DNA of 64,000 bases from Parcubacteria group bacterium. GTDB lineage: Bacteria; Patescibacteriota; Minisyncoccia; SW-4-49-11. Every line of letters starts with the position of its first letter. Position 1 is the stretch's first letter. A program made the translations under genes and the position numbers. The notes under the pieces were generated by a model. That model worked only from the letters and a program-made list of their open reading frames with translations. It had not been told where the DNA came from and searched no databases. Below, in pieces: positions 13,193 to 45,569 of the stretch. The stretch spans positions 136,026 to 200,025 of the forward strand of contig CALRBF010000001.1 of assembly GCA_943354045.1 (NCBI GenBank), read 5' to 3'.

Positions 13193-14839
13193 CTATTGCG
13201 TAATACTTTGGAGCACTGTATTAGACAATCGTGTTGGCCAATAGGTTATACGTTTTATGCTGCCGTTTATTCGCTCCTGTCCACCAAAATCGTAATGTCC
13301 AACAGTTGCCATATTGACAGTTGGTAGTACTCCACTTGAATCTGTTTCTAATGCTACGCCCACTCTTTTTAGTGCAAAATCATTCGCCGCATAACCAAGT
13401 GCTACCTTGTTACCGCCGGGTGAACCAAAGATTGCTTGGACAGCGGATACCGAGACAACCGCCGTTTGTGCTGCGGCGTTTGAGAATTGAATCCGCTCTC
13501 CTGCGTCTGTGGATGCCCGAACGGTGATTGTTGCCCCGCCTCCAAGGACATTAGCTGTTTCTCCATAGAAAGTACCCCCCAACTGATTATACCAAGAGTT
13601 AAAATTAGTACCTGCTATTATTGTTGCACTATCTGCAAATCTTTGTACAGTAGCAGTCGTTGTAGGTATATAGGATGTAGCAAAAGCCCCTTGTTCTAAT
13701 TGAGCCCCCCATGCATAATAGCTATTCGTTGATGTAGAAGCTCCCCAAGTATCAAACCAAACTGACCCATTAGATTGTGTTAATACCGAATTCAAAGTAG
13801 CAGTTATGCTACAACGATACCAACCATTTCCTACATTTGTTATTGTTGCATTTGCAGCTGTTGCTGTCCCATTAACCGTAACTCCTCCAGATAATTGTCC
13901 CGTTGCAAGATTCAATAGCTGATTGGCTCCATTACCACCGGCAGCATCATCTATTCTTATTAATATTACAGATTGTGTATTAGCCTTCAGATAAACAGAA
14001 AACGTATAAGTCCCTATTGTAGATGTTGTAGCAGTTTTAGCCCAAACTTTAACATTACTAGTACTATTAGAACCAGTAACTATATCAGCATTTATACCTC
14101 CATCTGGAGAAGCAATTGTATTGGCTATTATAGCAACATTATTGAGGCTGGTACTAGCAGCTAAATCAGCTGATTGTAATAATAAATTTGTCCTCTGCTC
14201 CTCCACTAATAGCCCTAAACTCTCCCTGGTCACAGGATTATGATTAAACCTTGGTGCATTTACTGCTGCCGTCTTAATAAGTCCATCTGAGTCTACATAT
14301 GTTGCCGTAGGAGTAGTTTCTAAAACATTTCTTATAAAACTTATTGGATTAGTACCATTGACTGCATTGGTTAATTGTTTATCTCTTGCAAAGTTTAAAT
14401 CTAGGGTTGGTGCTACTGTTGTTCCTCCTGCTGCTGTTGCCAATATATTACTATTATCATATCCAGTACTTACTCCATTTACTGTCTTTGTCACTAAGTA
14501 TTGCCCTCTATCTGGTATGGGTATTCCTGCTATATAGTCACTTAATGCACTACTTAAATCTATTCCATTACTACATCCTGCTACTACACATAATCCTACT
14601 GTACTTCCTACTCCTACTCCTTGTAATGCTGGCGGATATACTCCCCTTTCTATAATATATTGTTGTATTGCCTTTGCTATTGCATTTTGATCTGATTTCC
14701 TCTTTGCTTCCCTTGCTGCTTCTATTTGTTTATTGGGGTTTATTGCAATTAATACTATTGCTGCTAATATACCTATTGCGGCAATCACCAATAATATCTC
14801 TAATAATGTAAATCCTTTCTTTTGTTTTCCTCCCCTCAT
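13193..14839 (-). CDS. Giant type IV pilin-like protein (prepilin N-terminus fused to large C-terminal domain), paralog 1
   Basis: Class III leader and N-terminal hydrophobic helix (MRGGKQKKG|FTLLEILLVIAAIGILAAIVLIAI). 548 aa. Shares conserved blocks with the 570-aa paralog at 18908..20620. Confidence 0.75.
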   Translation of the reverse strand: MRGGKQKKGFTLLEILLVIAAIGILAAIVLIAINPNKQIEAAREAKRKSDQNAIAKAIQQYIIERGVYPPALQGVGVGSTVGLCVVAGCSNGIDLSSALSDYIAGIPIPDRGQYLVTKTVNGVSTGYDNSNILATAAGGTTVAPTLDLNFARDKQLTNAVNGTNPISFIRNVLETTPTATYVDSDGLIKTAAVNAPRFNHNPVTRESLGLLVEEQRTNLLLQSADLAASTSLNNVAIIANTIASPDGGINADIVTGSNSTSNVKVWAKTATTSTIGTYTFSVYLKANTQSVILIRIDDAAGGNGANQLLNLATGQLSGGVTVNGTATAANATITNVGNGWYRCSITATLNSVLTQSNGSVWFDTWGASTSTNSYYAWGAQLEQGAFATSYIPTTTATVQRFADSATIIAGTNFNSWYNQLGGTFYGETANVLGGGATITVRASTDAGERIQFSNAAAQTAVVSVSAVQAIFGSPGGNKVALGYAANDFALKRVGVALETDSSGVLPTVNMATVGHYDFGGQERINGSIKRITYWPTRLSNTVLQSITQ

Positions 14840-18907: not shown

Positions 18908-20620
18908 TTATTTAGTGATATTAGTCAGAGTTGTATTGGATAATCGCGTCGGCCAGTAGGTTAATCGGGAGATTATACCATTAAGAGCATATGGTGGAGC
19001 TCCTCCAGTACCACTTCCAATATCTAATCTATCATGTGTAGCCATACCTGTGGCAGCTGTATTAGTTGTTATAGTTCCTATATTTCCATTAATACCTACA
19101 ATTAAATCTGAGCTATTAATTGCATATACAGATTTATATATGTTATTGCCTACTAAATAATTAAATGTCATCCCTGGAAATAATAATATTGGATTAGGAT
19201 TACGTGCAACACCCAAAAAAGATGTCGCATTTATAGCTCCTCTTAAAGCATAATTATTTTGATTTATAGCGGTATTATATACTTGGAATATATGTGGGGT
19301 ATTACTTGGAATTGCAGCAGTAGCAGTATAAATAGGAGAAAATTGACTAAACCAGGTTCCTGCTGCCTGATTATACCAACCTCCTCCTGAAGTTGTGGTA
19401 AAGTTTGTCCCCGTGATGCTCGCCACATCCGCGCTGCGGGTTACGGCGGCGGTGGTGGTAGGAATATATGAAGTTGGGAAAGCTCCTTGTTCTAGTTGAG
19501 CTCCCCAAATATAAACTTGAGAACCATTATAATTAGTACCATCATAATTACCTATACGAAATTGTGGTCTAAATGTAGTTTGTCCTGTAGGGATGGTATA
19601 AGTTGCAGAGACTCTATACCAATTATTACTATATGGTGTTATGGATGAAGCTGTAATATTAGTTCCTGTATTAATTGTACCTGATACTAAATTAATACTC
19701 ATAGAATAATTTAATCCCCAACCCTCTTGTACAATAGTGGCATTTTGCTGATTAATATATTTAACAAAAACTGAATATGTATATACTTGCCCTGTAGAAG
19801 CAGCTATCGTTTTTGCAACATTTGGATATAGCCCCGAAGCAGACATTAAAGTTCCTGTATTTGTACCATCCGGAGCTAAAGATTGGTTGGCAGTAGCAGA
19901 CATTGAGCCAGATTTTTCCCAATATACATTACTAATATCTGTACTATACAGCCATAAATTAGTTCTCTGCTCCTCAATCAATAGTCCTTGACTTGATTTT
20001 GTAATAGGATCATGAGTAAATCTTGGTGCATTTACTGTTGCGGTCTTAATAAGTCTATCTGAGTCTACATATGTTGCCGTAGGTGTACTTTCTACAATAT
20101 TACCTGGATTAGTTACTCTTGCAAAATTTATGGGATTAGTCCCATCAACTGCATTTACTAATTGTTTATCTCGGGCAAAGTTTAAATCTAATTTTGGAGC
20201 TGTAGTCCCAGCTGTTGCCCATATAGTACTACTATCATAGGCTGGTATAATCCCTGTCGCTGTTTTGGTTATAGTATATTGCCCCGTTTGAGGCAGAGGA
20301 ATAGCTGCTATATAAGGCGCTAAGTCAGTAGTCAAATCTATACCCCCTGTACAAGGGCTCGTCACACATAATCCTACCGTCCCTCCTGTTATCACAGATT
20401 GTAAGGCTGGTGGATATTTACCCCGATTATTGACTACATACTGTTCTATTGCCTTTGCAATAGCATCCATATCAGCTTTTCTTTTAACAGCTCTCCCGGC
20501 CTCTAATTGCTTATTAGGGTTAAGTACTACTAAACCTATTGCTGAAAATACACCAATAGCTGTGATTACTAATAATATTTCTATTAGGGTGAATCCTTTT
20601 TTCTTTTTATATATTATCAT
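18908..20620 (-). CDS. Giant type IV pilin-like protein, paralog 2
   Basis: Prepilin leader/helix MIIYKKKKG|FTLIEILLVITAIGVFSAIGLVVL. 570 aa. Conserved blocks shared with 13193..14839: LDLNFARDKQL.NAV.GTNPI.F, TPTATYVDSD.LIKTA.VNAPRF.H.P.T......GLL.EEQRTNL, IWGAQLEQGAF.TSYIPTTTA, R.TYWPTRLSNT.L. The blocks are separated by divergent segments. Confidence 0.75.
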   Translation of the reverse strand: MIIYKKKKGFTLIEILLVITAIGVFSAIGLVVLNPNKQLEAGRAVKRKADMDAIAKAIEQYVVNNRGKYPPALQSVITGGTVGLCVTSPCTGGIDLTTDLAPYIAAIPLPQTGQYTITKTATGIIPAYDSSTIWATAGTTAPKLDLNFARDKQLVNAVDGTNPINFARVTNPGNIVESTPTATYVDSDRLIKTATVNAPRFTHDPITKSSQGLLIEEQRTNLWLYSTDISNVYWEKSGSMSATANQSLAPDGTNTGTLMSASGLYPNVAKTIAASTGQVYTYSVFVKYINQQNATIVQEGWGLNYSMSINLVSGTINTGTNITASSITPYSNNWYRVSATYTIPTGQTTFRPQFRIGNYDGTNYNGSQVYIWGAQLEQGAFPTSYIPTTTAAVTRSADVASITGTNFTTTSGGGWYNQAAGTWFSQFSPIYTATAAIPSNTPHIFQVYNTAINQNNYALRGAINATSFLGVARNPNPILLFPGMTFNYLVGNNIYKSVYAINSSDLIVGINGNIGTITTNTAATGMATHDRLDIGSGTGGAPPYALNGIISRLTYWPTRLSNTTLTNITK

Positions 20621-33131: not shown

Positions 33132-34568
33132 ATGGTATTTAGCTCAATATTTTTTATCCTATTTTTCCTACCCGTTCTTATTATTGGATATTATCTTATC
33201 CATCCTAAATATCGTAATTTACTCCTTCTTATAGCAAGCTTATTATTTTATGTTGCAGGGGAAGCTAAATACAGTATAGTTTTATTAATTAGTATTTTTG
33301 CCAATTATATATTTGGTGCACTAATTGCACTATTTCAAAATAAAAATAATTCTCAAGGTGCAAAACTTATATTACTAGTATCCATAATCTTTAATATTGG
33401 TACATTAATTGTATTTAAATATGCCAATCTAATTGTAGATACTATTAATCCATTCTTACAATGGATTTTTTCTAATCAAATTAGTTTATCGCCTATTCAT
33501 CTACCTATTGGTATATCATTTTTCACTTTTCAAGCACTTTCATATGTAATTGATGTGTATAGGAGAGAAACTCGTTCTCAATTTAGTTTAATTAATTTTG
33601 CTATGTATATAGCATTATTTCCACAACTTATTGCTGGACCGATTGTAAGATATTTAGATATAGAAGATCAAATTCAAAACAGAAAACATTCCGTAAATCA
33701 TTTTACTGAAGGAATTACAATATTTATTATTGGACTTGCAAAAAAAGTATTAATTGCTAATAATGTTGCCCTTATTGCTGATCATATATTCTCATTACCC
33801 AGTCAAGAAATTGGATTTTCCTATGCTTGGATTGGAATCATAGCGTATAGTCTTCAAATATATTTTGATTTTTCTGGGTATTCTGATATGGCTGTGGGGC
33901 TTGGTAAAATGTTTGGATTTGATTTTGTTAAAAATTTCAATTATCCTTATATTTCTCAGTCCATACAAGATTTTTGGCGAAGATGGCATATTTCATTATC
34001 TACTTGGTTTCGAGATTATTTATATATTCCTTTGGGGGGTAATAGAAAAGGAGAAAAAAGAACATATATTAATTTGATTATTGTATTTGGTTTATGTGGA
34101 TTATGGCATGGAGCTAGTTGGGTGTTTTTATTATGGGGATTATGGCATGGAGCCTTTTTAATTATTGAAAGACTTCCCTATACAAAAAACCTAATTAACA
34201 AGTCACCTTTACTCATCAAATACCTTTATACTTTTTTAGTAGTAACTATTGGTTGGGTGTTTTTTAGAGCCGAGAATGTAACATTCGCAATACAATATTT
34301 AGAATCAATGTTTGGATTAAATGGGAATGCCTCACTCTCGACTTTACCAATAAATATTTATAATAATAAAACAATAGTATTTCTTATATTAGGAATTGCT
34401 GGAAGTATTCCGTTACTTCCCTATATTAAATCGAGAATATCCTCTATAAAATTATTAAAGAATATTCAATATCCTCTTTATTACACTTATACCATTATAA
34501 TATTATGTTTTTCTATATTAGCATTATCAAATAATGCATATAATCCATTCATATATTTTAGATTTTAA
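33132..34568 (+). CDS. MBOAT family membrane O-acyltransferase (DltB/AlgI/PatA-like)
   Basis: Polytopic, with the conserved-His region WHISLSTWFRDYLYIPLGGNR characteristic of MBOAT enzymes. Confidence 0.8.
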   Translation: MVFSSIFFILFFLPVLIIGYYLIHPKYRNLLLLIASLLFYVAGEAKYSIVLLISIFANYIFGALIALFQNKNNSQGAKLILLVSIIFNIGTLIVFKYANLIVDTINPFLQWIFSNQISLSPIHLPIGISFFTFQALSYVIDVYRRETRSQFSLINFAMYIALFPQLIAGPIVRYLDIEDQIQNRKHSVNHFTEGITIFIIGLAKKVLIANNVALIADHIFSLPSQEIGFSYAWIGIIAYSLQIYFDFSGYSDMAVGLGKMFGFDFVKNFNYPYISQSIQDFWRRWHISLSTWFRDYLYIPLGGNRKGEKRTYINLIIVFGLCGLWHGASWVFLLWGLWHGAFLIIERLPYTKNLINKSPLLIKYLYTFLVVTIGWVFFRAENVTFAIQYLESMFGLNGNASLSTLPINIYNNKTIVFLILGIAGSIPLLPYIKSRISSIKLLKNIQYPLYYTYTIIILCFSILALSNNAYNPFIYFRF

Positions 34569-34569
34569 T

Positions 34570-35691
34570 ATGAAAATATCTTTTAATTATATATATATTA
34601 CAAACATTATATTCATAGGAGTTTTTTTTCTCATTATTATAACTCCACTTATTTTAACTCTACTCAATCCTAATTCATCAACAAATATTGAAAATAAGAC
34701 ATTAGCTCAAAAACCTCCAGTTCAACTTATTCGAGAAGGTAAATTTGGTGAATATGTTAAAAATGGTGCTAAATATTTTGAAGATTCATATCAACTTAAA
34801 AGTAATCTCATAAATATTAACTCACTGATTGACTATTATGGTTTTAATATATCTCCTAAAGACTCCGTAACACTAGGAAAGGATCAATGGTTGTTTTATA
34901 CCGCTGAAGATGGAGTTAATATTCAAGATTATTATGGAAAAAAACTATTCCAAGAAAAAGATTTAGAAAATATATCAAAAGAAATAACTAATATAAAAAC
35001 AAAATTAGATAAAAGAAATATTCAGTTTATTATTATGATGACCCCTAATAAACATACTATTTATGAGGAATATTTACCTTCTCGTATTCGTAATCAAAAA
35101 GGAAGTCTTACTAGAGCCGATCAATATACTCCTATATTATCATCCCTCAATGTAAATTATATTGATCTTAGGAAAACACTATTAGATCAAAAATCTCAAT
35201 ACGCTTATCCATTATATTATTCCCTTGATAGCCATTGGAATGATAGGGCTGGACTCATTGCATATAATAAACTCCTTACAAAAATCAATCCACGTCCTTC
35301 AACAAAAATACCTGATATTACTATAGGTACTAAAAATCGCACTGGAGATTTAGGTAATATTATTGGACTTAGCCACAGACTCAAAGACACTTCTATTTCA
35401 GCAAATATACCTTCTCCCCCACTATACTCAACCAATATTACTAACACAAAAGAGATTAATCAAATTATCACTAAAAATCCCAATGGAGACCCAAGAAAAA
35501 TACTTATGTTTAAAGATTCATTTTCCGGAGCTTTATTACCATTTATGTCCTCCCAATTCTCAGAAGTACTTTATGATGCTAATCCTAAAGTAGATTTTAA
35601 CCTTATAGATGAATATAAACCCGATATTGTCATATTACAATTTGTAGAGAGATATTCTAATATTTTATTACAGAATGGAAATAAGTTTTAA
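34570..35691 (+). CDS. AlgX/AlgJ/PatB-like extracytoplasmic O-acetyltransferase partner (N-terminal anchor, SGNH-like fold)
   Basis: N-terminal TM anchor and a DSHW motif (SLDSHWNDRAGL), as in AlgJ/AlgX/PatB. It is immediately downstream of the MBOAT gene, and the start was placed at the internal ATG adjacent to the MBOAT stop. Confidence 0.5.
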   Translation: MKISFNYIYITNIIFIGVFFLIIITPLILTLLNPNSSTNIENKTLAQKPPVQLIREGKFGEYVKNGAKYFEDSYQLKSNLININSLIDYYGFNISPKDSVTLGKDQWLFYTAEDGVNIQDYYGKKLFQEKDLENISKEITNIKTKLDKRNIQFIIMMTPNKHTIYEEYLPSRIRNQKGSLTRADQYTPILSSLNVNYIDLRKTLLDQKSQYAYPLYYSLDSHWNDRAGLIAYNKLLTKINPRPSTKIPDITIGTKNRTGDLGNIIGLSHRLKDTSISANIPSPPLYSTNITNTKEINQIITKNPNGDPRKILMFKDSFSGALLPFMSSQFSEVLYDANPKVDFNLIDEYKPDIVILQFVERYSNILLQNGNKF

Positions 35692-38816: not shown

Positions 38817-38890
38817 GGATGTGTAGCTCAGCTGGTTAGAGCAGTCGTCTTATAAGCGACAGGTCGGTGGTTCAAGTCCACCCATATCCA
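38817..38890 (+). tRNA. tRNA-Ile with genomically encoded anticodon UAU (reads AUA)
   Basis: GGATGTG-TA-GCTC-AGCTGGTTA-GAGC-A-GTCGT-CTTATAA-GCGAC-AGGTC-GGTGG-TTCAAGT-CCACC-CATATCC-A. The D arm and T arm are near-identical to bacterial tRNA-Ile (AGCTGGTTAGAGC; AGGTCGGTGGTTCAAGTCCAC). The anticodon loop is CTTATAA. Confidence 0.75.
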
Positions 38891-38909
38891 CATCAATAGA
38901 TAACCCATT

Positions 38910-39254: not shown

Positions 39255-40199
39255 TTACCTCTTTGTCGTTTGTTGAGTTACAATTTCATAGGCCATAATA
39301 GCGGTGGCGGTGGCTACATTCAGAGATTGAATCTTACCATACATTGGGATATATCCGAGCATATCACAACTAGAGGCAATACTTGGTCTGAGTCCCTTAC
39401 CTTCGCTTCCCATTACGAGTACAGTTGGTAAGTCATTGAAGTCATATTGATAAAATGGTGGAGTTTCTGGGTTACAATCACTACCCAATATCCAAAAGCC
39501 TAATTGCTTCAAGGTATTAAGTGCGGTATTCATATTGCCTACTTGTACCAGAGGCACATATTTGTCTGCCCCAGAGGCAACTTTTGACCCTATAGGGGAT
39601 ATAATCCCCCCTCTATGCTTAGGTAGTAATACGCCAAGAGCTCCCATAGTCTCAGCCACGCGGATAATTGCTCCAATATTATGTTGATCGGTAATTTCAT
39701 CCAGAGCAATAACTAAACCTTTAGAAGTATCCCCTACTTTCTCTTTGATACTAGCAGCCCATTCTTCTAAACTGAGTAAAGGCTCAGCTGTTACCACGGC
39801 AATAATACCTTGATGAATATAATCCCCTTCTTCAGCAATTTCTTTCTCTAATAATCCGGTTATTTTTTGAATAGGAACATATTGAATGAGGGCAAGAGAC
39901 TCTTTAGCAAGTTCCAAAATTTGCTCCAAACGCTTATCTCGAACCTGATTCTCTCGAGTAATATAAATTTTCTGAACTCGCTTAGGATCTTGTTTTAATA
40001 TCTCCAGCACGGAATTCTTTCCATATACATATTGACTCCCATCTTTATCTTTTAGCTTACCCTTAGGAGCTTTACTCAATTGATTGGCGGGATTACGACG
40101 ATGTTTGGTAGTAGGCAAAGCAGACTTTGGGACATCTTCACGCTTTTCGCGCTTATTACGGCGAATAGCTTTTGACTTCTTTTTGGTAGGATATGGCAT
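39255..40199 (-). CDS. rlmB: SpoU/TrmH-family 23S rRNA 2'-O-methyltransferase (RlmB-like) with Lys/Arg-rich N-terminal extension
   Basis: A C-terminal SPOUT methylase core (GNVGAIIR-like HNIGAIIRVAETMG; LVMGSEGKGL). About 60 aa of basic low-complexity N-terminus. Confidence 0.7.
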   Translation of the reverse strand: MPYPTKKKSKAIRRNKREKREDVPKSALPTTKHRRNPANQLSKAPKGKLKDKDGSQYVYGKNSVLEILKQDPKRVQKIYITRENQVRDKRLEQILELAKESLALIQYVPIQKITGLLEKEIAEEGDYIHQGIIAVVTAEPLLSLEEWAASIKEKVGDTSKGLVIALDEITDQHNIGAIIRVAETMGALGVLLPKHRGGIISPIGSKVASGADKYVPLVQVGNMNTALNTLKQLGFWILGSDCNPETPPFYQYDFNDLPTVLVMGSEGKGLRPSIASSCDMLGYIPMYGKIQSLNVATATAIMAYEIVTQQTTKR

Positions 40200-40261
40200 A
40201 AATAAAATATAAATAATTAAGGCTATACTAGCATAAAATATAGGTATTGTATAGGTGTTGA

Positions 40262-40545
40262 GAGTATCTTAGTCGCTTGTATTTTGTCCTCCTTAGGAGG
40301 AGCTTTAAGTCCCTCCCATACTTTAGTTTGCGAGTGGCCGGAGGTGGATAATTCGTAAACTATGTTATAAAATAGAAATGAGATTTGATCGCTATCCACC
40401 CCCGTCTTGTAGACTTCCCCCTCCCTGCCTACCGAAGGCAGGCGAAGGGAGGACAAGAGTAAAGATTTTTTTGTTACGACAACACAGGCGACTGAAAGGT
40501 CGCCCCTACGAAGTAAAAGTAGGTTTTATGTAGTAGGGAATAAAT
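40262..40545. repeat. GC-rich hairpin-dense repeat element, copy A (candidate structured ncRNA / MITE-like)
   Basis: About 50% GC against a roughly 33% background. It shares an exact 19-mer CTTTAAGTCCCTCCCATAC and a ~30-nt block CACAGGCGACTGAAAGGTCGCCCCTACG with 44950..45245, where the second block is inverted. It also has multiple GGAGG/CCTCC stems, for example CCTCC-tta-GGAGG and CCCTCCCTGCC-taccgaa-GGCAGGcgaaGGGAGG. Confidence 0.5.
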
Positions 40546-42318
40546 CTAGGTATATATAACTCTAGGATTATACTGTTCCAAACCATTTTCTTTGTCTAAG
40601 ACAGTAGCAATTTCTTCACTCAATTCTCTTAATCGTGCCTGTTTAGTATCAAAATCATCGGGTTTTTGATATTGCTCTATATATTCTTTTAATTTATTAA
40701 TTGCTTTAATAATAGAATCCTTATCTGTAAGTTCTGTTTGCTCTAGTTTACCTCTTATATATTCACTTTGACTATATCTTTTATTTAATTCAACTACTCT
40801 AGATGTGTTAATAGAAAATTTAGAATTTATTGTATGATATTGACTAATATATTGGTCTCGCTCAGTAATCCTTAATTTTATATTTTCTAAAATTGGGCTT
40901 AATCTAGATATAGCATCTTGATCTCTAGAGGGATTCCATCTTGATTTAGATTTATTCTGTTCTAGATAATCCTCTATTTCTCTCAGTTCCCCTACTTTCA
41001 TTTTTTTGCTTTCTGGTATTCTAAAATTACGAAGTGCTCTAATATTACTTATAGCTGATCCTAATCTATCTAATTCAGTATTTAGAGATGTACTACTATC
41101 TTCAACTTTATTTGATAATTCCTCTAAGGTTTTTTGATAATCTTCTTGTAATTCAAAACCTTTACCTGTTAATCTAACTTCACAAGTGACTTTTTCTAAT
41201 TCTTCTGATAATAAATTTAGATTTATATTATCAGAAGACCTATCTCTTTCTAAATGAGAAGCTTCTTGATATGATGGATCTCCTTTAATACCCCCTACTT
41301 CTTGTTCTAAAGTATTTTTACTATCTCTAAGTAAATTTAATTCCCTCTCTTTAGCGCCCCTAGCAAAATATTGAATAGATTGTTCAGTAGATTCTGAGCC
41401 GTTATACACCTTTGAATCTACTTTTAGCTTTTTAATTTGCTCCATTCCATCAACATACCCGTATAATTCAAAAATTTCTTCCAAATCTCTATCTGATATA
41501 TAGAATTCTGTTTCACCCCTTACTTCTCGTGTGACCTTAGTTTCAGATAATCTTTTTTCTAATTCTCCTTTAGCTCGCTCTAATAAAATAGGTTTATCAT
41601 TCTCTTCTGCTCCAGTTTCTGCATAACTTGCCTGAGATTCTGTTAATTGCGTATTCAATTCTTCTAGCCTAGTTTGTATAGCTGTCTGTACTTGATTTTC
41701 AGTTTCTTGATCAAAAGTTTGTAAATTTTGTGCTACCTGTAATAAGGAATCTTCATTAGCCTTAATTGCTGCACCAAATTGTGGTTTACTTCGTGCTTTC
41801 TCAGTAAATTCTTCGATTGACTCTGTACTTTTAGGATTAGTTGCTTTTAACTTATTATAAGCTTCCTTAATCATCTGTAAAAGTTGTAGTTGTATTCCTG
41901 ACAATTTTGTTTTTGTATTTTCCAAACTAATTCTAGACTCTTGTCTAGATTGTAAAATTTCATTTTGTATTGCGTCAAACGCTTCTCCCTGCCTACTTTC
42001 TAATTGCTGAATTTGAGATTTAATGTCCTGTATTTCTAAGCCTTGTTCTGATAATCCATCTTCATTTACTTCAAATGATGGTTTTGATTCTTTTATTCCT
42101 TGATCGACTAATTCATCCAAATCAAAATTTAAGGAATCTGGATCAAGTTCTGGCTCTCCCTCAATAGCAGGAGACTCTTTATCTTCTATAGTTTCTAGAC
42201 CTGCTTGTAATTTAGCTAATTCTTCAGGGGATAATTCTGTAGATGCAGCATTACCAGAAGAACCTGCACCACCCTCTTGTTCTGGAGCATATACTATTGA
42301 ATTCTCAAATAATCTCAT
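40546..42318 (-). CDS. Large acidic coiled-coil protein (hypothetical), encoded directly downstream of ftsA
   Basis: 590 aa, E/Q/L-rich with heptad character throughout. No TM segment, no tubulin (GGGTGSG) motif and no P-loop. It lies 9 bp downstream of ftsA on the same strand. Confidence 0.55.
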   Translation of the reverse strand: MRLFENSIVYAPEQEGGAGSSGNAASTELSPEELAKLQAGLETIEDKESPAIEGEPELDPDSLNFDLDELVDQGIKESKPSFEVNEDGLSEQGLEIQDIKSQIQQLESRQGEAFDAIQNEILQSRQESRISLENTKTKLSGIQLQLLQMIKEAYNKLKATNPKSTESIEEFTEKARSKPQFGAAIKANEDSLLQVAQNLQTFDQETENQVQTAIQTRLEELNTQLTESQASYAETGAEENDKPILLERAKGELEKRLSETKVTREVRGETEFYISDRDLEEIFELYGYVDGMEQIKKLKVDSKVYNGSESTEQSIQYFARGAKERELNLLRDSKNTLEQEVGGIKGDPSYQEASHLERDRSSDNINLNLLSEELEKVTCEVRLTGKGFELQEDYQKTLEELSNKVEDSSTSLNTELDRLGSAISNIRALRNFRIPESKKMKVGELREIEDYLEQNKSKSRWNPSRDQDAISRLSPILENIKLRITERDQYISQYHTINSKFSINTSRVVELNKRYSQSEYIRGKLEQTELTDKDSIIKAINKLKEYIEQYQKPDDFDTKQARLRELSEEIATVLDKENGLEQYNPRVIYT

Positions 42319-44820: not shown

Positions 44821-44949
44821 ATAATATAACCTCCTTTCATGATTTTTCATTCGCTAAAAATAAGTCCTTAGCAAGACTTTGTTACAATTCTATCACAAAA
44901 TCAAAAGATTAGCAATAGTATGTATAAGATGAGGAAATCAATAGATAAA

Positions 44950-45245
44950 TTATGCTTTCGTAGCGGAGGCTTTAAGTCCCTCCCATACATTGTTTGGGAG
45001 GGGGTTTATCCCTCCACTATTGTTCTTATGTAGGGGAGACCTATCAGTCGCCTGTGATATATTTGAGCTTGAGCTTTTATCTCCCTCCAAAGGGAGGACA
45101 GAAATACAAGTTGCAGAATACTTCCACCCCACCATCTAAAAGACGGTACCCCTCAATTTATCTCCCGTAGGGAGAGAGGGGTAATTTAGAGTAACTAGAA
45201 AGAAGCCACCTGTTAGGGTGACTTAAGAGGTTTTTCCATCAAGTA
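44950..45245. repeat. GC-rich hairpin-dense repeat element, copy B (rearranged relative to copy A)
   Basis: Contains the same 19-mer CTTTAAGTCCCTCCCATAC (44970..44988) and the inverted copy of the GGCGAC-hairpin block (45025..45056). Serial CCCTCC/GGGAGG hairpins: GGGAGGGggtttatCCCTCC, TCCCTCCaaaGGGAGGA, TACCCCTC..TCTCCCgtaGGGAGA..GAGGGGTA. It lies immediately upstream of rpsU. Confidence 0.5.
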
Positions 45246-45569
45246 CTAAATGGGTCTTTGGGATTGTGGATTTAATATGTCTGACACTAGATTCCATAGC
45301 GAATCTGTTAGCTCAATGGTATGAATTGTATTATCAAATCTATATTGTCCTAAATCCTCCTCATGTTTAATGTTGAACCCAAACTCAATTTTTGTTCTTA
45401 ATATTTCAATATCTGTACTATGGTCTGCGGTGAGAAAATCTATTAAGCCTTCCCTAAATCCTACTATAGTTTTTATTTGGGATAGAATACTATCATAACA
45501 TCTAATCCAGTTCTTTCCCGATAATTGCCTTGCTTGTCCTGTCGTGTTTGACATTGGCTTATAAACCAC
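45246..45569 (-). CDS. Hypothetical 107-aa protein (orphan)
   Basis: An ORF only. No recognisable motifs. It sits between repeat copy B and the HisRS-like gene. Confidence 0.3.
   Translation of the reverse strand: MVYKPMSNTTGQARQLSGKNWIRCYDSILSQIKTIVGFREGLIDFLTADHSTDIEILRTKIEFGFNIKHEEDLGQYRFDNTIHTIELTDSLWNLVSDILNPQSQRPI

Follow-up and report, generated by a model that had tools for sequence, protein, structure and literature searches.

In the 64,000-nt stretch analyzed here (contig CALRBF010000001.1 of a Parcubacteria group bacterium, hereafter the window), two GC-rich intergenic islands, A (40262-40545) and B (44.9-45.2 kb), are most probably mosaics of short GC-rich palindromic DNA repeats resembling the bacterial interspersed mosaic elements (BIMEs) of enterobacteria, with one of these repeats, M2, being a GTAG-tagged repetitive extragenic palindrome (REP) and the putative substrate of a REP-associated tyrosine transposase (RAYT). 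M2 is repeated, lies outside genes, shows no strand bias and forms inverted doublets in related genomes, modules are gained and lost piece by piece between relatives, and RAYT genes of relatives are flanked by M2. In a first-pass annotation, made from the letters of the window alone, island A had been described as a hairpin-packed candidate for a structured RNA with an RNase P-like motif.

The M2 repeat and its distribution

M2 corresponds to the GGCGAC-hairpin block already noticed in the first-pass annotation. In island A, a distance of 37 nt separates it from the stop codon of the 590-aa open reading frame (ORF) upstream, and it overlaps with a second small hairpin.

40487-40509, minus strand: REP unit M2, GTAG-G-GGCGAC-CTTTCA-GTCGCC (GTAG tag, 1 nt, 6-bp stem, 6-nt loop), with 61 exact copies in species-representative genomes
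40505-40523, unstranded: small hairpin CCTAC-gaagtaaaag-GTAGG, overlapping the GTAG tag of M2 and kept beside M2 in the related contig L010 and partly in L012

Copies of M2 were counted with the 23-mer GGCGACTGAWAGGTCKCCCCTAC, allowing two degenerate positions, in one genome per species (GTDB set). The 61 exact matches fall in 56 stretches across more than 10 metagenome-assembled genomes (MAGs), the richest of which hold 14, 13, 11, 6 and 5 copies, while five more hold one each. The hosts are MAGs titled Candidatus Paceibacteria, Parcubacteria, Paceibacterota or Minisyncoccia, plus related ones that are untitled or titled Saccharibacteria. Exceptions are three lone matches, one each in a MAG titled Proteobacteria, one titled Chloroflexota and a third one titled Saccharibacteria (there being three MAGs of that title), which may be due to mis-binned contigs or chance. 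As the search pattern included CTAC, the presence of the GTAG tag in all 61 copies is partly by construction; the tag is also found in the RAYT-flanking M2 copies described below, which were located independently via the protein.

In 519 kb of non-redundant related loci, M2 occurs in 61 exact copies and in 87 copies when up to three mismatches are allowed. The vast majority of the latter (81 of 87, 93%) is located outside ORFs of at least 110 aa, though such ORFs cover about 82% of the sequence. Of 43 copies between co-directional genes, 23 have M2 on the transcribed strand and 20 on the opposite one, which amounts to no bias, and in 14 of these contexts the copy lies within 50 nt of the upstream stop. 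Where two copies are less than 400 nt apart, they form an inverted pair with outward tags in 11 of 11 cases, four of them being spaced 45-46 nt start-to-start, as in REPINs. Conservation is limited to about 27 nt (aCA-GGCGAC-TGAAAG-GTCGCC-CCTAC-g/a), and each copy has flanks of its own that resemble none of the others.

As defined in passages of two sources (PMC6006769; PMC3733652), a REP of the GTAG super-family consists of a hairpin preceded on its 5' side, at a distance of 0-2 nt, by the tag GTAG or GTGG. With a conserved unit of about 27 nt, within the 20-40 nt of REPs, M2 is a short palindromic stem-loop with an unpaired GTAG tag 1 nt 5' of the stem, and it is both multi-copy and extragenic. 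Two other types of module start with TTCGTAG followed by a hairpin, namely GTAG-CGGAGGG-TTTAT-CCCTCC (7 copies) and GTAG-A-GTCGGCG-CCC-TCGCCGAC (6 copies).

RAYT genes in related genomes

When the related loci were probed with E. coli RayT, using an approximate sequence, one weak match was obtained (E = 0.0045), an ORF of locus L057, and no match in these loci was obtained with an IS608 TnpA probe of the same approximate kind. The L057 ORF is assigned to Y1_Tnp by Pfam (PF01797, E = 5e-7, above cut-off) and derives from the MAG CALMJI01, which bears 14 exact M2 copies. Intact homologues (P0023-P0029) are 95% down to 55% identical, and their best NCBIfam match is NF047646, the REP-associated tyrosine transposase, at 72-78 bits, compared to 28-31 bits for the IS200 model. 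Their best PDB match is 4ER8, the E. coli TnpA_REP. The HUH (PNHIH) and YIxxNP tyrosine motifs are invariant, and the residues W-Q...R, contacting GTAG in E. coli TnpA_REP, align with IWQKSFYDRIIR in these RAYTs.

In five out of five loci (L057, L070, L071, L152, L153), M2 flanks the RAYT gene on both sides, within about 10-45 nt and in the orientation of the gene, and this holds even at 55% protein identity. Judged by its layout, the M2-RAYT-M2 arrangement in these relatives is that of a REPtron, a term used in a passage of one source for a RAYT gene flanked by REPs (PMC3733652). In three of the five loci (L057, L070, L071) the gene is placed between LigA and MurG, with one RAYT gene per contig. 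RAYTs have been described as single-position, vertically inherited genes (bioRxiv 10.1101/2021.07.10.451892), and the LigA-MurG placement fits this pattern. Within the window, ORFs of 641 and 388 aa (5.3-8.4 kb) were considered as LigA and MurG and rejected. They represent a DUF11 protein and Tgt, hence the RAYT site of the relatives lies outside the window. In a metagenome scan with the RAYT alignment, identity did not exceed 41% among the matches listed, and no RAYT could be tied to the species of the window.

Several further features of the RAYT loci were observed. In the L057 gene (3368-3871, minus strand), a CAA-to-TAA change puts a stop codon directly ahead of the catalytic YIDENP motif, reflecting either a recent pseudogene or a sequencing error, and the REP flanking it downstream is split by a 24-nt insertion. 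Moreover, every RAYT ORF of the clade (L070:2311-2337, L071:4866-4892, L152, L153 and L057) contains in frame an inverted M2-like REP encoding ...NTGDIRSPLRE..., a segment that the more distant homologues P0030 and P0032 lack and that represents an insertion compared to them. The two stem arms of this in-frame REP have changed together in L153 (GGCGAG/CTCGCC), matching an extragenic copy nearby. The in-frame REP may act as a self-regulatory hairpin.

Modular composition of islands A and B

The gap holding island A (40200-40545, 346 nt) is bordered by the stop of the 590-aa ORF (40546-42318, minus strand), which lacks a Pfam domain, and by the start of a gene for a SpoU-type methyltransferase (39255-40199, minus strand). 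GC content amounts to 44.4% for 40262-40545, 46% for the island A core and 55% for its 120-nt maximum, compared to 33.7% for the gene-dense chromosome of the window; the enrichment first noted for the island is thus real, whereas the value of about 50% given for it was too high. All hairpins listed at that time are present in the sequence. Two ORFs of 77 aa (minus) and 51 aa (plus) overlap the island mechanically. Because the alignment of relatives shows non-triplet indels and module swaps, neither is a credible gene, in agreement with the first-pass annotation.

40200-40262, minus strand: conserved promoter-proximal segment upstream of the SpoU-type methyltransferase gene, outside the repeats, the sole long block of the gap kept in the related contigs L009, L010, L011 and L012
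40284-40348, minus strand: TCCACC-headed two-hairpin unit d1 (regular-expression match), inverted, with the 19-mer module nested in its first hairpin; holds the CCTCC-tta-GGAGG hairpin
40298-40337, plus strand: 19-mer module GGAGG-CTTTAAGTC-CCTCC-CATAC-TTTAGTTT-(degenerate 3' arm), with the exact 19-mer at 40303-40321
40349-40394, unstranded: AT-rich spacer of 46 nt between the two inverted TCCACC-headed units, whose heads face inward and whose arms pair in the minimum-free-energy fold
40395-40456, plus strand: TCCACC-headed two-hairpin unit d2, TCCACCCCC-GTCT/GACT-CCCCCTCC-[CTGCC-taccgaa-GGCAG]-GGGAGGACAA; holds the extended hairpin of the first-pass annotation and GGGAGGAC

The core of island A is an inverted doublet of the TCCACC-headed family, which produces the long stem of the predicted fold. 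The canonical unit of this family comprises 42-43 nt, TCCACC(Y)CC-[small hairpin]-CC(Y)CC(Y)CC-loop-GG(R)GGACAA, and exists in covarying CCTCC..GGAGG and CCCCC..GGGGG versions. With a strict regular expression, 22 such units were detected in the related loci (about 519 kb), and the head TCCACCYC occurs 137 times in 522 kb, with about 8 occurrences expected by chance according to a rough composition estimate. The family is commoner than M2, and nine head-inward doublets with AT-rich spacers are found in related loci. At the place orthologous to d1, L010 bears the uninterrupted counterpart TATCCACCTCTGGCACTTCGTGCCACCTCCCCCAAGGGAGGACA.

The 19-mer module, with the canonical form GGAGG-CTTTAAGTC-CCTCC-yATAy-tttagttt-GGGAGG, is present in the same 519 kb in 17 copies with up to three mismatches, in both orientations and often nested in other repeats; its 3' arm in island A has decayed to GCGAGTGG. 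In a viral contig collection, neither M2 nor the 19-mer was found.

Island B is built from related pieces:

44887-44959, minus strand: rpsU promoter TTGCTA-17-TGtgaTAGAAT (44915-44887, extended -10; promoter scan), preceded by a repeated AT-rich segment of about 40 nt (44918-44959)
44960-45015, plus strand: REP of the second GTAG-tagged type (GTAG-CGGAGGG-TTTAT-CCCTCC), split by a 32-nt 19-mer module at 44970-45001
45030-45052, plus strand: M2 variant GTAGGGGAGACCTATCAGTCGCC with two mismatches, one of them breaking the stem, in the orientation opposite to the copy of island A
45081-45103, plus strand: CTCCCTCC-aaa-GGGAGGACA hairpin, the 3' half of a TCCACC-type unit, having AAGGGAGGACA in common with island A
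45123-45186, plus strand: unit with TCCACCCC as its head, belonging to the ...CCCCTC-loop-GAGGGGAATTT type and enclosing a CTCCC-gta-GGGAG hairpin, the same unit type that stands beside many M2 copies
45203-45224, minus strand: terminator-like hairpin with T-rich tail downstream of a 107-aa ORF, bounding island B and outside the repeats

Both similarities between the islands that had been pointed out before were recovered. The exact 19-mer CTTTAAGTCCCTCCCATAC is found at 40303 and 44970, 4.6 kb apart and both on the plus strand, with a chance expectation of 0.06 matches, and the GGCGAC-hairpin block, put at about 30 nt and here roughly 30-40 nt, is 80% identical over 40 nt (40483-40522 versus 45017-45056). 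Further pieces are common to both islands in another order, AAGGGAGGACA at 40445 and 45090 and TCCACCCC at 40395 and 45123. However, since the GGCGAC block is inverted relative to the 19-mer in the second island, islands A and B are not two copies of one element, as had been assumed, but different mosaics of common modules. The assignment to a repeated family holds nevertheless, with modules recurring in many related loci, and the proposed copy count, made here in related genomes and loci, yielded the 61 exact GGCGAC blocks and the 17 copies of the 19-mer module given above.

The uninterrupted form of the split REP, GTAG[CT]GGAGGGTTTATCCCTCC, has seven occurrences in related loci, and the 32-nt insertion is seen in the window only, being absent from four homologous composites in the alignment. 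Part of the unit at 45123-45186 is matched exactly over 32 nt in L012, where its orientation with respect to the genes on either side is reversed. As it is placed between a terminator-like hairpin and the rpsU promoter, island B is probably little transcribed.

The AT-rich segment CGAAAGCATAATTTATCTACGATCTCCTCATCTCATACAA was noticed at the end of REP composites (window 44918-44959; L010:17143-17185; L064, L067 and L015). In three or more independent loci (window; L010, L067, L064) it abuts the -35 of promoters that look strong, namely those of rpsU, S1 and a tRNA, with the segment also present in L015. Ahead of the SpoU promoter, a similar version of it is found (40240-40275). The segment may serve as an upstream promoter element or belong to a mobile unit.

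Comparison with relatives

Syntenic contigs from freshwater and other metagenomes were reached via the SpoU-type protein and the 590-aa ORF. The orthologous gap measures 342, 323, 266 and 368 nt in L009, L010, L011 and L012, respectively. From the alignment, which had been proposed in the first-pass annotation, a promoter-like block, made up of the 60-75 nt directly ahead of the SpoU start codon, emerges as the only conserved part, whereas among the GC-rich hairpins there are swaps, deletions, inversions and replacements. L012 and a JGI contig lack island B, with about 120 nt separating the HisRS-like gene from rpsU behind it.

Over long stretches, L010 and the window share about 93-96% identity, and the closest species representative, JBIKWJ01, is about 95% identical. 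Still, tRNA-Ile and MazG, just 17 nt apart in the window, are separated in L010 by a cluster of about 570 nt, and another cluster lies between its S1 and tRNA-Lys, in the place of two window genes encoding ALGX-like and MBOAT proteins. REP clusters thus coincide with sites of gene-content change between these closely similar genomes. A further cluster of 570 nt follows an MmeI-type gene in L011. In detail, the ALGX-like and MBOAT pair occupies 33132-35691 of the window, as opposed to the REP cluster at L010:17024-17728, and in a converse swap L010:6542-7498 has an RDD-family gene where the window (44851-45245) has REP cluster B. Repeats typically break assemblies, and breaks at island A are explained in this way: four Logan short-read contigs (L003, L006-L008) end 3-4 nt from M2, and L009 has a scaffold gap (N run) inside M2.

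A search for target-site duplications at the tRNA-Ile/MazG site (empty in the window, filled in L010) and around the 32-nt nested insertion of island B revealed nothing convincing beyond a possible GGAGG overlap. It is very improbable that island A represents a miniature inverted-repeat transposable element (MITE), or a nest of these, derived from a DDE-type insertion sequence and having terminal inverted repeats and target-site duplications. The inverted doublet of about 170 nt with an AT-rich centre (40284-40456) and the differing presence between close relatives would be in line with it, but the repeated units are only 23-45 nt long and recur independently, the filled and empty sites compared show no recognizable target-site duplication, and in the loci no DDE transposase with matching ends was seen, the sole transposase with matching flanks being the HUH/Y1 enzyme. 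Of the MITE candidacy put forward initially, only the loose sense of small non-autonomous mobile DNA survives, while the hallmarks of a DDE-type MITE were not seen in the sites and loci compared.

Search for an RNA gene in island A

The proposal that island A is a gene for a structured non-coding RNA, either a reduced RNase P, transfer-messenger RNA (tmRNA), signal recognition particle (SRP) or 6S-like RNA or a novel one, with the 19-mer forming a P4-like long-range helix, has to be regarded as largely refuted and is hardly credible. It would be compatible with the GC enrichment within an AT-rich genome and with the persistence of an intergenic gap of similar length in relatives, as well as with folding that is better than in dinucleotide shuffles on both strands (z = -5.5 for plus and -3.8 for minus). 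Palindromic repeats, however, fold well by construction, hence these z-scores do not discriminate. Scanning the whole window with Rfam 15 at the gathering score revealed only four tRNAs, and with permissive filters at E <= 10 both islands gave chance-level matches only (atoC, snoRNAs, miRNAs) and none to RNase P, tmRNA, SRP or 6S RNA; ARAGORN also found no tmRNA. The covariance-model scan suggested in the first-pass annotation thus leaves both islands without a matching family, and the RNase P-like, tmRNA and SRP-like candidates are not supported.

Some likeness to bacterial RNase P RNA exists, as AAGUCC...CUCC(C)AUA of the 19-mer loosely resembles conserved region I (CR-I), but a covariance-model match and a CR-V partner are lacking, the size is wrong and the motif occurs twice in 4.6 kb. 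Instead of being an RNA motif, the 19-mer is the core of the small repeated hairpin module described above. It recurs independently of the GGCGAC block, each of them in many unrelated contexts and both orientations, and M2 has no bias toward the transcribed strand. A single conserved structured RNA is also contradicted by the order and orientation of modules, which differ between the two islands and between orthologous gaps.

A possible role of the hairpins in RNA

As a further alternative, the hairpins might be kept mainly for a role in RNA or transcription, as factor-independent terminators, barriers to 3'-exonucleases or operon insulators, with their repetition reflecting convergent or exapted use, which we consider quite unlikely. 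The position of M2 close behind the 590-aa ORF argues for it, where the hairpin persists in L010 and L011 (GTAG tag lost, loop changed, stem kept) and is degraded in L012. The 14 of 43 co-directional copies close to an upstream stop point in the same direction, and such roles have been proposed for REPs, according to a passage of PMC3733652. On the other hand, hairpins immediately followed by a U-tract, as in intrinsic terminators, are absent from 40100-40650, no terminator-like site being found there, and strand bias is lacking. Convergence would not be expected to give 61 exact 23-nt matches, loop included, in more than 10 MAGs, a dedicated transposase with M2 flanks exists, and island B is probably little transcribed. 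As a secondary, exapted function, an RNA role is compatible with the islands being mosaics of mobile palindromes, and the M2 hairpin located 37 nt after the stop may, by its position, provide a 3'-end, stabilizer or terminator structure for the mRNA of the 590-aa ORF.

Proposed mobilization of M2

On the preferred reading of the islands as BIME-like mosaics, island A would occupy a permissive spacer, with one gene ending before it and the promoter of the following gene behind it, and M2 would be the DNA substrate of the RAYT-type HUH/tyrosine transposase of this Paceibacteria lineage. If it works like E. coli TnpA_REP and the IS200/IS605 family, the RAYT would recognize the hairpin together with GTAG on single-stranded DNA (GTAGGGGCGACCTTTCAGTCGCC, TTCGTAGGGGCGACCTTTCAGTCGCCTGT in the putative substrate), with cutting and rejoining taking place at this site. 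REPs or REP doublets would be copied in this way to new sites, mainly as inverted doublets, and clusters would build up in gaps where they are harmless. That the RAYT mobilizes M2 is what we infer from the related enzymes, and the other module families have probably spread by the same or a similar route.

Several observations weigh against this interpretation. The stem of 6 bp and the loop of 6 nt place M2 outside the canonical REP ranges of 7-20 bp and 2-5 nt (PMC6006769), and the two M2 copies of the window are singletons 4.5 kb apart, one of them degenerate, and not doublets. The RAYTs score below the equivalog cut-off of NF047646 (72-78 versus 80 bits), their flanking REPs are direct instead of inverted, and they are known from relatives, the genome of the window itself being represented by 64 kb only. 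Neither a target-site signature nor a transposition event was seen in the sites compared, and the TCCACC-headed units and the 19-mer module are without a demonstrated link to RAYT. Finally, retention of the hairpin behind the 590-aa ORF could indicate selection for an RNA or terminator function rather than purely selfish DNA.

A bolder proposition, which appears doubtful, is that a REP-RAYT system is alive in ultra-small, host-dependent genomes of the candidate phyla radiation (CPR), with direct REP flanks and a conserved, possibly autoregulatory in-frame hairpin, and is accompanied by a more abundant, previously undescribed TCCACC family that could have a role at the RNA level. With their covarying CCUCC/GGAGG arms, resembling anti-Shine-Dalgarno and Shine-Dalgarno sequences, the TCCACC units could be mRNA 3'-end structures where U-tract terminators are few, or translation-related decoys.

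Relation to known repeat systems

GTAG-tagged REPs and REPINs are reportedly mobilized by RAYT/TnpA_REP in E. coli, Pseudomonas and Stenotrophomonas, as is said of work by Nunvar 2010, Bertels and Rainey 2011, Ton-Hoang 2012 and Di Nocera 2013. M2 shares with these the short GC-rich imperfect palindrome with an unpaired 5' GTAG, the multiple and almost exclusively extragenic copies in both orientations, the consistently inverted close pairs, and the RAYT-like gene, which encodes HUH and Tyr motifs and has the same REP on either side. With regard to REPINs, inverted pairing applies to the M2 pairs of relatives (11 of 11), whereas the M2 copies of the window are singletons and the doublet of island A belongs to the TCCACC family. 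Differences from the known systems are the CPR (Paceibacteria) host lineage, a stem and loop shorter and looser than in canonical REPs, copy numbers per genome in the tens instead of hundreds, the direct REP flanks, a third, inverted REP in frame inside the RAYT ORF, and a score just below the NCBIfam cut-off.

Enterobacterial BIMEs are likewise intergenic clusters with REPs in alternating orientation and other short conserved motifs, and islands A and B combine M2, the GGAGGG-type REP, TCCACC-headed units and the 19-mer module in differing orders and orientations. The accompanying motifs here are unrelated in sequence to those of BIMEs and elements are nested inside one another. GC-rich palindromic mini-elements in AT-rich reduced genomes are also represented by the GC clusters of yeast mitochondria and the Rickettsia palindromic elements (RPE), whose insertions lie between genes and in some cases, in frame, within them, comparable to the REP inside the RAYT ORF. 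No sequence relation is known, and the mobilizing enzyme is different, or unknown for those systems.

REPs, REPINs, BIMEs and RAYTs are well known, and what is new is a lineage-specific member in CPR bacteria; its unusual traits are the short stem, the direct REP flanks of the RAYT gene, the in-frame REP in the RAYT ORF and the co-resident two-hairpin family. A full-text literature search gave no report linking RAYT or REPIN with Patescibacteria, with "repetitive extragenic palindromic" and "candidate phyla radiation" co-occurring in a single paper, there in unrelated passages. Proteobacteria whose genomes are large are the usual context in which REP/REPIN-RAYT systems are considered. A RAYT-like gene with its cognate REP in a CPR lineage, at the same position in three relatives, widens the host range, and with tightly packed genes and short intergenic gaps these genomes offer a compact study system. 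A suspected novel RNA turns out to be ordinary repetitive DNA and the RNase P-like false lead is removed, while in the annotation of Paceibacteria MAGs such GC-rich hairpin clusters can be masked instead of giving rise to spurious ORF or RNA calls. Beyond that, REP clusters mark sites of differing gene content between genomes of about 95% identity.

Further observations in the window

Among the housekeeping genes of the window are those for S1, FtsH, MazG, the SpoU-type methyltransferase, FtsA, YbeY, YqeY and S21. The 590-aa ORF lies directly downstream of ftsA, and one of its homologues is named "chromosome segregation ATPase" by JGI. Between L009 and the window, the 590-aa protein is 92% identical and the adjoining intergenic island 100% identical, which, going by the sequences, would suggest either a fast-evolving protein or recombination. 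Adjacent to island B, rpsU is called as 89 aa in databases, hence the 99-aa reading is without an exact-protein record. The 107-aa ORF on the other side (45246-45569, minus strand) is called as 102 aa in databases, shows no significant Pfam match and is absent from L012 and a JGI relative; it belongs to the variable segment between the HisRS-like gene and rpsU.

At 38817-38891 of the window, ARAGORN predicts a tRNA-Ile whose anticodon is UAU. This is uncommon, since most bacteria read AUA with a CAU tRNA modified by lysidine. Furthermore, two paralogous ORFs of about 550-570 aa (13193-14839 and 18908-20620, minus strand) are situated 5.78 kb apart and share blocks of 71-82% nucleotide identity, and both contain an internal GC-rich stretch (57-58%), representing the highest GC peaks of the window.

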